Positions 42,898-44,595 of a stretch of 64,000 nt of DNA are shown here, in pieces. Within the stretch, counting starts at the first letter, position 1. Each line of letters opens with the position of its first letter. The stretch covers positions 224,001 through 288,000 of IMG/VR virus record IMGVR_UViG_3300049988_000286. The stretch is one strand, 5' to 3'. This DNA is from a virus (Duplodnaviria > Caudoviricetes). The position numbers and the translations under genes were made by a program. Under the pieces are notes generated by a model. That model saw nothing but the letters and a program-made list of their open reading frames with translations. It ran no database searches and was not told where the DNA came from.

Positions 42898-43611
42898 ATG
42901 CCGTGGCGATTTTCCAAACGTGTTAAGATCATGCCCGGAGTTACTCTAAACTTCGGTAAACGAGGTGTGTCGGCGTCGGTAGGTCCACGCGGCGCAAAGC
43001 TGAACTTTGGATCGAAGGGCGTGAGGGGCTCGGCTAGCATTCCCGGCACGGGCTTGAGCGCATCGACCATGCTCTACGGTCGAAAGAGGAGCCCATCGCC
43101 ACTCGGAACGCTCCTGTCTTCGCGGAAAAGTCCGTCACGCAGATTAGCTGGGTGTGGATCAGTTCTTGTTGGACTGGCGCTGCTTGGCCTTGTGTCAACC
43201 TGTATGCGCGGAGTTTCGTCATCACCAGAAGCTGCGGCGATCGTTGACATGCCAGCGCTTCTCGACGTTTCGGGCAAAGAGGCCCGAAGTGCCTTGGGTG
43301 CACCATCGGAATGCGACGTTTCAAAGAAGGGCGAGACTTGTCGCTATCGCTTCAAGGAGCGAGATGTAGAGCTTTACTTCCAACGCGGTGCGAGTGCGTC
43401 CGTTACGGTCAGCGGAGTAGATGAGCATTTCGGGTCGTCTTCGTTGCCGGTATTCGGAATCAGAGAGCGCACTCTGACCACCGCGACGCCGATCGTCATC
43501 AGAGCAGATACTACGGTGCGAGGCAAGGCCGCAGCAGTGAGCATGTTCCCACGGAAGGATAACCGTGTCGATTACGTCTATCTCAAAAAAGCGACATTGA
43601 ACAAAAAATAA
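42898..43611 (+). CDS. DUF4236-domain membrane protein
   Basis: WRFSKRVKIMPGVTLNFGKRGVSASVG...IPGTGLS, then a TM helix and a C-terminal domain. Confidence 0.85.
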   Translation: MPWRFSKRVKIMPGVTLNFGKRGVSASVGPRGAKLNFGSKGVRGSASIPGTGLSASTMLYGRKRSPSPLGTLLSSRKSPSRRLAGCGSVLVGLALLGLVSTCMRGVSSSPEAAAIVDMPALLDVSGKEARSALGAPSECDVSKKGETCRYRFKERDVELYFQRGASASVTVSGVDEHFGSSSLPVFGIRERTLTTATPIVIRADTTVRGKAAAVSMFPRKDNRVDYVYLKKATLNKK

Positions 43612-43614
43612 TTG

Positions 43615-43644
43615 TTGACACCCGCGACGCCCTGTGACTAAATA
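43615..43644 (+). promoter_or_regulatory. composite early/late promoter of the tRNA operon
   Basis: A-tract UP element, TTGACA-N17-CTAAAT, overlapping TAAATA. Confidence 0.65.
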
Positions 43645-43649
43645 AGTGC

Positions 43650-43805
43650 ATGTCCACGATGACTCTCTCGACGCGAAAGCGCAAACGCCTCTAAAAGAGA
43701 GCCGCCATGCTGCGCGCTCTCGAAGCAGCCAGCGTGGGAGAGACGATCAGAGATCGTCGGTGTGACAATTCCCAGATTTTGCGCTGTGCTGCTCCCCAGA
43801 GAGGG
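43650..43805 (+). ncRNA. candidate structured RNA leading the tRNA operon
   Basis: Nested stems CTCTC/GAGAG, GCAGC/GCTGC, CAGCG/CGCTG, TGGGA/TCCCA, GACGATC/GATCGTC; upstream CGC-GAAA-GCG hairpin. Confidence 0.5.
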
Positions 43806-43811
43806 TTGAGT

Positions 43812-43886
43812 AGGCCATTAGCTACAATTGGTCAGAGCGGCGGTCTCTTAAATCGCGGGTTGTGGGTTCGAGTCCCACATGGCCTA
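43812..43886 (+). tRNA. trnK: tRNA-Lys(CTT), CCA not encoded
   Basis: AGGCCAT/ATGGCCT acceptor, loop CT-CTT-AA, GTGGG TTCGAGT CCCAC T-arm. Confidence 0.92.
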
Positions 43887-43909
43887 CTCAACCCTCTCTC
43901 TACTTTGAT

Positions 43910-43986
43910 GGGTCCGTAGTTCAATAGGTTCAGAACAACCGGTTCTTACCCGGTATGTCCCCGTTCGAGTCGGGGCGGACTCACCA
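43910..43986 (+). tRNA. trnK: tRNA-Lys(CTT), CCA encoded
   Basis: GGGTCCG/CGGACTC acceptor, ACCGG TT-CTT-AC CCGGT, TTCGAGT T-loop, ACCA. Confidence 0.9.
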
Positions 43987-43998
43987 TCTCATCTTTGT

Positions 43999-44075
43999 GG
44001 GCGCATAGTTCAATAGGTCCAGAACAACCGGTTTTTACCCGGTATGTCTCCGTTCGAGTCGGAGTGCGCTTACCA
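43999..44075 (+). tRNA. trnK: tRNA-Lys(TTT), CCA encoded
   Basis: GGGCGCA/TGCGCTT acceptor, ACCGG TT-TTT-AC CCGGT, TTCGAGT T-loop, ACCA. Confidence 0.9.
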
Positions 44076-44106
44076 TCACGCGCAAACGCCTATATGGACC
44101 CTTCCC

Positions 44107-44277
44107 ATGACCGACCCCACCATCCCCGACCTCTCCCTCCTCACCCTTGACCTAGAGATCGACCCGGAGGGCGACTCCGACTATCTCCGCGTCACGCTCC
44201 GCTACGATGGCGAGACCCTGACCAGCGATTCGGTGCAGTTGCCGAGACGGCGTGACTCCGCGTCGTACTACTACTAA
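44107..44277 (+). CDS. small hypothetical protein (paralogue of 30329-30493)
   Basis: YLRVTLRYDGETLTSDSV. Confidence 0.65.
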   Translation: MTDPTIPDLSLLTLDLEIDPEGDSDYLRVTLRYDGETLTSDSVQLPRRRDSASYYY

Positions 44278-44282
44278 CAGTC

Positions 44283-44595
44283 ATGATCGATAGTACCACT
44301 CTGGTCGGATCGTACCGAGATTTAGCTGCCATCCTCTACTCGCTGTTTCGAACAGAATGTGAGATGATACTGCCTTCAAGACGTAGGCGGGTAAACTCTG
44401 GCATCTACGTATAAATTTGCGTGCCAAGGATATTCGATTGCAGTGTTGACTTCTATTCGGGATGGGACATGTCCTGTTCGCCGCTATTACCTTCGATTCA
44501 GCAATGCGGTTGTAGTTTGCGAGGAAACCGCTCAAAAAGGCATGATGCTGCTTCGAGGCGATGACCATACCCTCACGCTGGCATCGCTCCTCTAA
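44283..44595 (+). pseudogene. family A paralogue, +1 frameshift near 44410
   Basis: MIDSTT...SGIYV* then the +1 frame continues YKF...RYYLRF...LLRGDDHTLTLASLL*. Confidence 0.6.

Follow-up and report, generated by a model that had tools for sequence, protein, structure and literature searches.

A run of three lysine tRNA genes with variant anticodon arms within the translation kit of a large phage

That phage tRNAs can counter tRNA-cutting defences is experimentally founded, yet the idea rests on very few cases, reportedly the tRNA-Lys of phage T5, which acts against PARIS, and the T5 tRNA-Tyr, which acts against a retron. Here we address three consecutive tRNA-Lys genes on a 64,000-nt stretch of viral DNA (Caudoviricetes; subsequently designated the window), which comprises positions 224001–288000 of the 499,572-bp virus record IMGVR_UViG_3300049988_000286 (~57% GC). 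The explanation that accounts best for the locus as a whole, and to which we assign a probability of about 0.5, is that the trio forms the lysine module of a translation kit encoded by the phage itself.

In E. coli, the PARIS nuclease AriB recognises the sequence U36-A-A-U-C|A41 of tRNA-Lys(UUU) and cuts between positions 40 and 41. The exchange U39A abolishes cleavage, A41C inhibits it, and the tRNA-Lys of T5, which reads U-A-A-A-C-C in this region, is resistant to AriB (PMC12409363). For phage tRNAs with variant anticodon loops, evasion of VapC, PrrC and colicins has been proposed (PMC10264068), and nuclease escape by phage tRNAs is already a known idea (PMC10264068, PMC11464382, PMC12409363). 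Another described system that bears on the locus is the charging of tRNA-Lys by the class I lysyl-tRNA synthetase (LysRS; the class I enzyme is also designated LysRS-1) of Borrelia burgdorferi, for which the wobble pair G2.U71 is essential and the discriminator base is of little weight. The same pair is an antideterminant for the class II LysRS of E. coli (PMC9976931).

According to ARAGORN, the window contains exactly three tRNA genes (43812–43887, anticodon CTT; 43910–43986, CTT; 43999–44075, TTT), in agreement with a preliminary description of this DNA, which had reported three tRNA-Lys genes in a row with these anticodons. Alignment to the Rfam tRNA family RF00005 by Infernal yielded 56.6, 61.4 and 60.3 bits for copies 1, 2 and 3, respectively, all of which are above the gathering score of 29 bits. 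U35, U36 and A37 are present in each of the anticodon loops (CUCUUAA in copy 1, UUCUUAC in copy 2 and UUUUUAC in copy 3), and all three copies carry the discriminator A73. The three are sound, functional-looking phage tRNA-Lys genes, and their charging is predicted from the sequence. Their features are:

43812..43886, plus strand: tRNA-Lys(CUU) copy 1, with the arm GCGGU-CUCUUAA-AUCGC, A1-U72 and A73, without encoded CCA
43910..43986, plus strand: tRNA-Lys(CUU) copy 2, with the arm ACCGG-UUCUUAC-CCGGU, G2.U71, A73 and encoded CCA
43999..44075, plus strand: tRNA-Lys(UUU) copy 3, a paralog of copy 2 with the same arm, G1.U72 and G2.U71, A73 and encoded CCA

A tRNA scan of the whole genome returned 41 tRNA calls, which span most amino acids, and one tmRNA. 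The tRNAs cluster by amino acid (Gly-Gly, Arg-Arg, Cys-Cys, Gln-Gln, Lys-Lys-Lys, a Pro/Leu array, Ser three times, His-His and Glu-Glu), and the Lys trio is one among ~10 isoacceptor clusters. As nearly all tRNAs of this phage sit grouped by amino acid, the run of Lys genes is not a matter of chance. Lys codons account for 3.9% of the phage codons, with 3998 AAG versus 1305 AAA (75:25), and two CUU genes alongside one UUU gene fit this usage. An encoded CCA is missing in eight of the 41 calls, and U32/C38 anticodon loops are likewise found in eight of the 41, in tRNAs of differing specificity. Since such loops are not restricted to Lys and the trio is one of ~10 clusters, we conclude that there is no Lys-specific device. 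This bears on the proposal of the preliminary description that the genes constitute a backup set for Lys: both Lys codons are covered and the arms differ at positions 38–41, as detailed below, but the notion of a device dedicated to Lys does not hold. Rather, the trio is one module of a broad kit for translation and tRNA maintenance.

Copies 2 and 3 are 85% identical, and their anticodon arms differ at base 34 only, with G31-C39, U32 and C38 in both. The preliminary description, which had regarded them as duplicates with the arms ACCGG-TT[C/T]TTAC-CCGGT and with one or two G.U pairs in the acceptor stem, was correct in these respects, the pairs being G2.U71 in copy 2 and G1.U72 plus G2.U71 in copy 3. 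The paralogs are distinguished by four compensatory double changes, three of them in acceptor pairs and one in a T-stem pair, and G2.U71 is kept, a pattern that shows selection for the fold, the arm and the G2.U71 wobble pair. Identity of copies 2 and 3 to alphaproteobacterial tRNA-Lys is ~57–62%. When a long copy-2/3 pattern was searched against metagenomes, no match was obtained.

In the alphaproteobacterial tRNA-Lys genes that were sampled, the arm GCUGA-CUYUUAA-UCAGC is present in 7/7 cases, in CUU and UUU tRNAs alike, and it contains U36-A-A-U-C|A41, i.e. the site of E. coli AriB. This site is missing from all three phage copies. At positions 36–41, copy 1 reads U-A-A-A-U-C, with A39 and C41 as in T5, and copies 2 and 3 read U-A-C-C-C-G; the differences lie at positions 38–41, which decide cleavage by AriB. 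Judged by the rules for this enzyme, all three copies should escape an AriB-type nuclease, and resistance of the trio is plausible. The contrast to the E. coli arm that had been drawn beforehand stands for A38 and U39, both of which belong to the AriB site. The statement that two of the three arms are non-canonical applies to copies 2 and 3 but leaves out copy 1, whose arm is also a variant (U31-A39, G30.U40, and A39/C41 as mentioned).

The exact 17-nt arm of copies 2 and 3 was detected within tRNA-Lys genes in 5 of 13 matching viral contigs and in 14 of 18 matching metagenome contigs. In total it is carried by 14 distinct tRNA-Lys genes, copies 2 and 3 and 12 others, and outside the arm these genes are only ~60% alike, with a minimum of 44%. 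Genes with the exact arm reside mostly in dense phage-like tRNA arrays, with GC contents ranging from 32 to 60%. In several of these arrays (L188, L193–L195), the gene with the variant arm adjoins a tRNA-Lys that likewise has the anticodon CUU but a conventional ...UUAA-U... arm, which is the layout of copies 1 and 2. Related arms reading A37-C38-C39-C40 are present at loci L008, L189 and L191. Moreover, the cultured phage phiK7A1, whose host is the leaf pathogen Pseudomonas syringae, encodes a tRNA-Lys(UUU) with the arm ACCGG-CUUUUAC-CCGGU (MT740307.1, 25166–25240; L204). The stem and C38 are as in copies 2 and 3, and position 32 is C. We also considered whether the variant arm is linked to LysRS-1 and rejected this idea, as PF01921 has no match in five viral records that carry this arm, including one that is 97% complete. 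These records bear the arm although they have no class I LysRS, and the two features, arm and G2.U71, are therefore separate.

A class I LysRS is encoded by the phage itself, and was identified by profile matches:

genome 157331–158458, outside the window (L178:919–2661), minus strand: class I LysRS

The protein has 580 aa and matches PF01921 with 338 bits and NF001968 with 601.5 bits, just below the 648-bit cut-off of the latter. It shares 43–51% identity with LysRS-1 of Alphaproteobacteria. The ~100 C-terminal residues do not align with the alphaproteobacterial enzymes. No class II LysRS core (PF00152) was found in the phage genome, no relatives of the phage LysRS in viral contigs, and no class I LysRS homologue in deposited phage genomes (INPHARED, E 1e-20). 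Among the Alphaproteobacteria sampled, class I LysRS is present in 30 of 41; the unpublished genome G042 is included in this tally, and G042 and G242, also unpublished, are both included in the tally of 199/301. Sequences of these two genomes were left out of the analysis.

Of the 41 tRNA calls of the phage, only copies 2 and 3 and one doubtful Ala call have G2.U71. The corresponding pair is G2-C71 in copy 1, and also in the sampled alphaproteobacterial tRNA-Lys genes, which have variable discriminators, as expected under class I recognition. Because G2.U71 is essential for LysRS-1 of B. burgdorferi (PMC9976931) and the phage encodes an enzyme of this class, the acceptor G.U pairs are better explained by class I LysRS identity than by nuclease escape.

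The kit further comprises an RNA-repair set, consisting of a T4 Rnl1-type RNA ligase (PF09511), a second RNA ligase (PF09414), a Tpt1/KptA RNA 2'-phosphotransferase and a CCA-adding enzyme:

near genome 5.6–6.7 kb: Rnl1-type ligase
genome 98170–100453, outside the window (L180): CCA-adding enzyme near an AAA_33 kinase gene
near genome 324 kb: second RNA ligase
near genome 487 kb: Tpt1

The CCA-adding enzyme and the AAA_33 kinase may constitute an RNA-end repair pair. RNase III (PF14622) was not found in the phage genome.

Further members of the tRNA set are unusual in their own right. Two tRNAs with CUA anticodons, i.e. amber suppressors, are encoded outside the window (genome 102238–102314 and 106351–106425); TAG stops terminate 17% of the long open reading frames (ORFs) of the phage, which gives no sign of genome-wide TAG recoding. 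Transfer RNAs of 84–95 nt with an extra arm occur among types that usually have short variable loops (Met, Arg, Asn, Cys, Gln, Ile-UAU and Glu), and one tRNA has an 8-nt loop containing CCA.

Upstream of copy 1, the following elements were recognised, the first of which was read directly:

43615..43644, plus strand: promoter-like cassette with TTGACA (43615–43620), an 18-nt spacer and TAAATA (43639–43644), preceded on its 5' side by an A-rich tract
43650..43694, plus strand: 14-codon leader ORF (MSTMTLSTRKRKRL-stop), with its ATG five bases after TAAATA
43695..43797, plus strand: structured leader RNA that separates the leader ORF from copy 1

A consensus promoter scanner, which requires a spacer of 16–18 nt and at least 9 of 12 hexamer matches, left the Lys cassette unlisted. 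The layout of an A-tract, TTGTTGAC... and TAAATA is common to the Lys, Glu and Gln clusters, and the start codon follows 4–5 nt after the -10 box. The Lys leader ORF, which probably starts at or near the transcript start, contains one AAG (43677–43679) and one AAA codon (43683–43685) between Arg codons (RKRKR). The leader of the Glu cluster ends with ...MERERSIG and that of the Gln cluster with ...QRQQR; in each of the three leaders, the codons for the cognate amino acid are set among Arg codons at matching places. Folding of 43650–43811 yielded z = -2.15. Mutually exclusive terminator and antiterminator hairpins were not found after the leader ORF, and as no terminator follows it, we do not file the leader as a classical attenuator.

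The flanks of copy 1 are complementary and form a helix, which runs on from the acceptor stem:

43798..43811, plus strand: 5' arm of the leader–trailer helix (AGAGAGGGTTGAGT), which pairs perfectly with 43886–43899
43886..43899, plus strand: 3' arm of the leader–trailer helix (ACTCAACCCTCTCT), which begins at the discriminator A73

The 14 extra perfect pairs and the acceptor stem add up to 21 continuous Watson-Crick pairs, discriminator included, whereas no more than three extra acceptor-extending pairs are present in any of the 300 tRNAs of the other loci that were fetched. The sole alternative pairing found is that of the 5' helix arm with CUCUCU in the leader ORF, which thereby competes with the trailer for this arm (-14.7 vs -24.0 kcal/mol). 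Translation of the leader could be coupled to the state of the helix via this pairing, but this is only an idea. One or two extra acceptor pairs already slow RNase P, which must unwind them (PMC10731613), so that copy 1 is expected to stay locked if no other nuclease opens up the helix. Helices between leader and trailer of rRNA are known as substrates of RNase III (PMC10250234). A pattern search for relatives of copy 1 in which covariation of the helix could be assessed gave no match.

Apart from the anticodon arm, a bulged D stem adds to the oddities of copy 1. An origin of copy 1 as a remodelled tRNA-Trp, suggested by A1-U72 and by best database matches to tRNA-Trp, is unsupported, as the full-length identities to alphaproteobacterial tRNA-Trp (0.79) and tRNA-Lys (0.78) amount to a tie. 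A second helix-locked tRNA-like element heads the Pro/Leu array outside the window (genome 350697–350773; L205:298–374). ARAGORN calls it 'tRNA-Pro(GGG)'; it lacks CCA, has 12 perfect extra acceptor pairs and a fold z of -6.0. The element scores below the Rfam tRNA threshold, its anticodon hairpin can form with a loop of just 3 nt, and a leader ORF of the Lys type is absent in front of it.

As a lysine module of the phage's translation kit, the trio would be expressed from behind the cassette promoter and the Lys-codon leader ORF, and would supply Lys decoding when host tRNA-Lys runs short, while the leader ORF would report when Lys codons are read slowly. Copies 2 and 3 would keep G2.U71 for charging by a class I LysRS, either that of the phage or that of the host. 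With arms lacking U36-A-A-U-C|A41, the tRNAs would go uncut by an AriB-type nuclease that cleaves in the stem, and could replace host tRNA that has been cut. The presence of two CUU genes with different arms looks like a hedge against nucleases that differ in the part of the arm they read.

Several observations weigh against this interpretation. Other parts of the tRNA also matter to AriB (PMC12409363), and the rules applied here are those of one E. coli enzyme. An alphaproteobacterial host is only a lead, backed by the LysRS identity of 43–51%. Given the U32/C38 loops in eight of 41 tRNAs and the broad tRNA set, the arms could be due to a general divergence among phage tRNAs. A small number of cellular genomes also have the exact arm (Rhodoferax, three Verrucomicrobia and a Chthonomonadales metagenome-assembled genome; Roseibacillus is among them), which is therefore a normal working arm. 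That this arm is commoner in phages than in cells was not demonstrated; among the prokaryote matches listed, 5 of 120 lie in tRNA-Lys genes and most are chance 17-mers. Finally, no terminator through which the leader could gate the tRNAs was found, a scan of 43300–44500 for intrinsic terminators having returned 0 sites.

Some of these observations fit a tentative alternative, namely that the locus provides plain supply. In this case Lys would be part of a general tRNA set for late infection or for the time after host shut-off, and the arms would reflect drift or a tuning of decoding through positions 32 and 38, with no link to a nuclease. A set of 41 tRNA calls for most amino acids, accompanied by tmRNA and a synthetase, is what such a phage would carry, and CUU genes outnumber UUU genes by 2:1, in keeping with the 75:25 codon use. 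However, supply does not need two genes with the same CUU anticodon and quite different arms, and the pairing of a conventional with a variant arm recurs in unrelated arrays. Similarly, U32/C38 in eight tRNAs of different specificity and the functioning of the same arm in some cellular genomes are compatible with drift or decoding, but the arm is identical in copies 2 and 3 although their acceptor stems diverged, and its identity across 14 genes with bodies ~60% alike speaks for selection over drift. In addition, the changes in the arm fall on the recognition and cut site of AriB. A private tRNA–synthetase pair, in which both the acceptor G.U pairs and the anticodon arm serve as identity elements for the phage LysRS and permit lysine charging independent of the host, is doubtful and probably holds for the acceptor stem only. 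There, the class I enzyme of the phage with its ~100 extra C-terminal residues coincides with G2.U71, which serves LysRS-1 as an identity element and class II LysRS as an antideterminant (PMC9976931), is kept by both paralogs and is nearly absent from the other 39 phage tRNAs. For the arm, the notion conflicts with those phages that have the same arm and no class I LysRS, one genome being 97% complete. The G2-C71 pair of the sampled alphaproteobacterial tRNA-Lys genes sets copies 2 and 3 apart from them, yet copy 1 has no G2.U71 either, a class I LysRS of the host might charge copies 2 and 3, the class being present in 30 of 41 sampled Alphaproteobacteria, and identity rules of LysRS-1 are known for B. 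burgdorferi only.

A role of copy 1 other than, or in addition to, that of a translating tRNA is unlikely, be it as a processing stalk cut by RNase III of the host, as a held-back reserve or as a decoy that draws nucleases to its cell-like anticodon loop. With 56.6 bits and with U33, A37, A73 and the T loop kept, copy 1 qualifies as a tRNA, which the CCA-adding enzyme of the phage could finish, and CCA-less genes are not unique to it (8/41). What sets it apart are its 14 perfect extra pairs, compared to three or fewer in 300 other tRNAs, and extended acceptor stems hinder RNase P (PMC10731613); a further CCA-less element locked by a helix stands at the head of the Pro/Leu array. A processing stalk would agree with the cutting of rRNA leader–trailer helices by RNase III (PMC10250234), but no enzyme of this kind was found in the phage (PF14622), and no relatives were found in which covariation of the helix could be tested. 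A decoy would agree with the idea that viral tRNAs compete for AriB, which has been raised in PMC12409363. Likewise improbable, in our view, is the most far-reaching interpretation, according to which ACCGG-UUYUUAC-CCGGU (more loosely, Y32...A37-C38 followed by C39-C40-G41) defines a widespread class of phage tRNA-Lys that was kept or reached independently to hide from nucleases reading U36-A-A-U-C-A41. At the present locus, this class would be part of a three-layer rescue module, composed of a sensor ORF with Lys codons, a cell-like copy in a 21-bp helix acting as gate or decoy, and two nuclease-proof copies charged via G2.U71 by the phage LysRS-1.

Directly upstream of the tRNA-Lys cluster, a gene for a DUF4236 protein (68 bits) is located at window positions 42898–43611; no relatives were found when this protein was queried against viral contigs. 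On the 3' side, the interval 44076–44300 contains a small ORF (ATG at 44108, stop at 44277), which is followed by an array of small paralogs on the same strand as the tRNAs. No terminator is seen after copy 3 in this interval, and as genes on the same strand follow, the tRNAs may be co-transcribed with protein genes. Outside the window, a 23-nt stretch at genome 209187–209209 (L206) matches copy 3 in 22 of 23 bases, corresponding to the 3' anticodon stem, the variable loop and the 5' T stem. It is situated within a long ORF and may be a recombination scar or the result of chance.

Four features of this locus are new: an arm with C38-C39-C40-G41 that recurs elsewhere, the connection of G2.U71 with a class I LysRS encoded by a phage, the leader ORF, and a first copy that is locked. 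The arm would represent a second sequence solution for tRNA-Lys, present in many unrelated phage-like arrays, and phiK7A1 makes it directly testable. Odd features of one phage tRNA may serve different ends, with the acceptor pair G2.U71 pointing to class I LysRS and the anticodon arm pointing elsewhere. The Lys-codon leader ORF and the tRNA locked by a 21-bp helix could show how large phages time or gate their tRNA supply. Should the arm be neutral, the locus would be a well-documented part of a megaphage translation kit.

Compared with described systems, the leader ORF resembles the leader peptides of attenuators such as trpL and hisL, being a very short ORF, probably at or near the transcript start, with codons that are read by the downstream product. 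In contrast to these, it has only two cognate codons (one AAG and one AAA of 14), the payload consists of tRNA genes rather than biosynthetic genes, and no pair of terminator and antiterminator was found for the Lys cluster. For the helix around copy 1, the nearest analogue is the leader–trailer helix of rRNA (PMC10250234), in which the flanks likewise form a helix of ~20 bp enclosing a stable RNA; the present helix encloses a single tRNA and runs on from its acceptor stem, and it is only a candidate for cleavage. The LysRS-1 system of B. burgdorferi (Ambrogelly et al. 2005, reviewed in PMC9976931) also combines a class I LysRS with a G2.U71 tRNA-Lys, and U35 and U36 are kept. Here, however, the system is encoded by a phage, dependence of charging on G2.U71 is a prediction, and copy 1 and the sampled alphaproteobacterial tRNA-Lys genes carry G2-C71.

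With the variant-loop tRNAs of tRNA-rich mycobacteriophages and coliphages (van den Berg et al. 2023, PMC10264068), the trio shares differences from the host in or beside the anticodon loop, and RNA ligase genes are found in both settings as an alternative answer to cleavage. The loops were compared with known host nucleases in that study, whereas here the stem is changed too (positions 39–41). The closest parallel concerning the arm is the tRNA-Lys(UUU) of T5, which neutralises the AriA/AriB system PARIS of E. coli (PMC11464382, PMC12409363). In both phages the anticodon stem is altered at the recognition and cut site of the nuclease and many other tRNAs are encoded, and copy 1 shares A39 and C41 with the T5 tRNA. 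The present phage differs from T5 in that copies 2 and 3 use C38-C39-C40-G41 together with U32, that both Lys anticodons are covered, with two genes for CUU, and that resistance is predicted from sequence; furthermore, its cluster is accompanied by a Lys-codon leader ORF and a LysRS of the phage's own.

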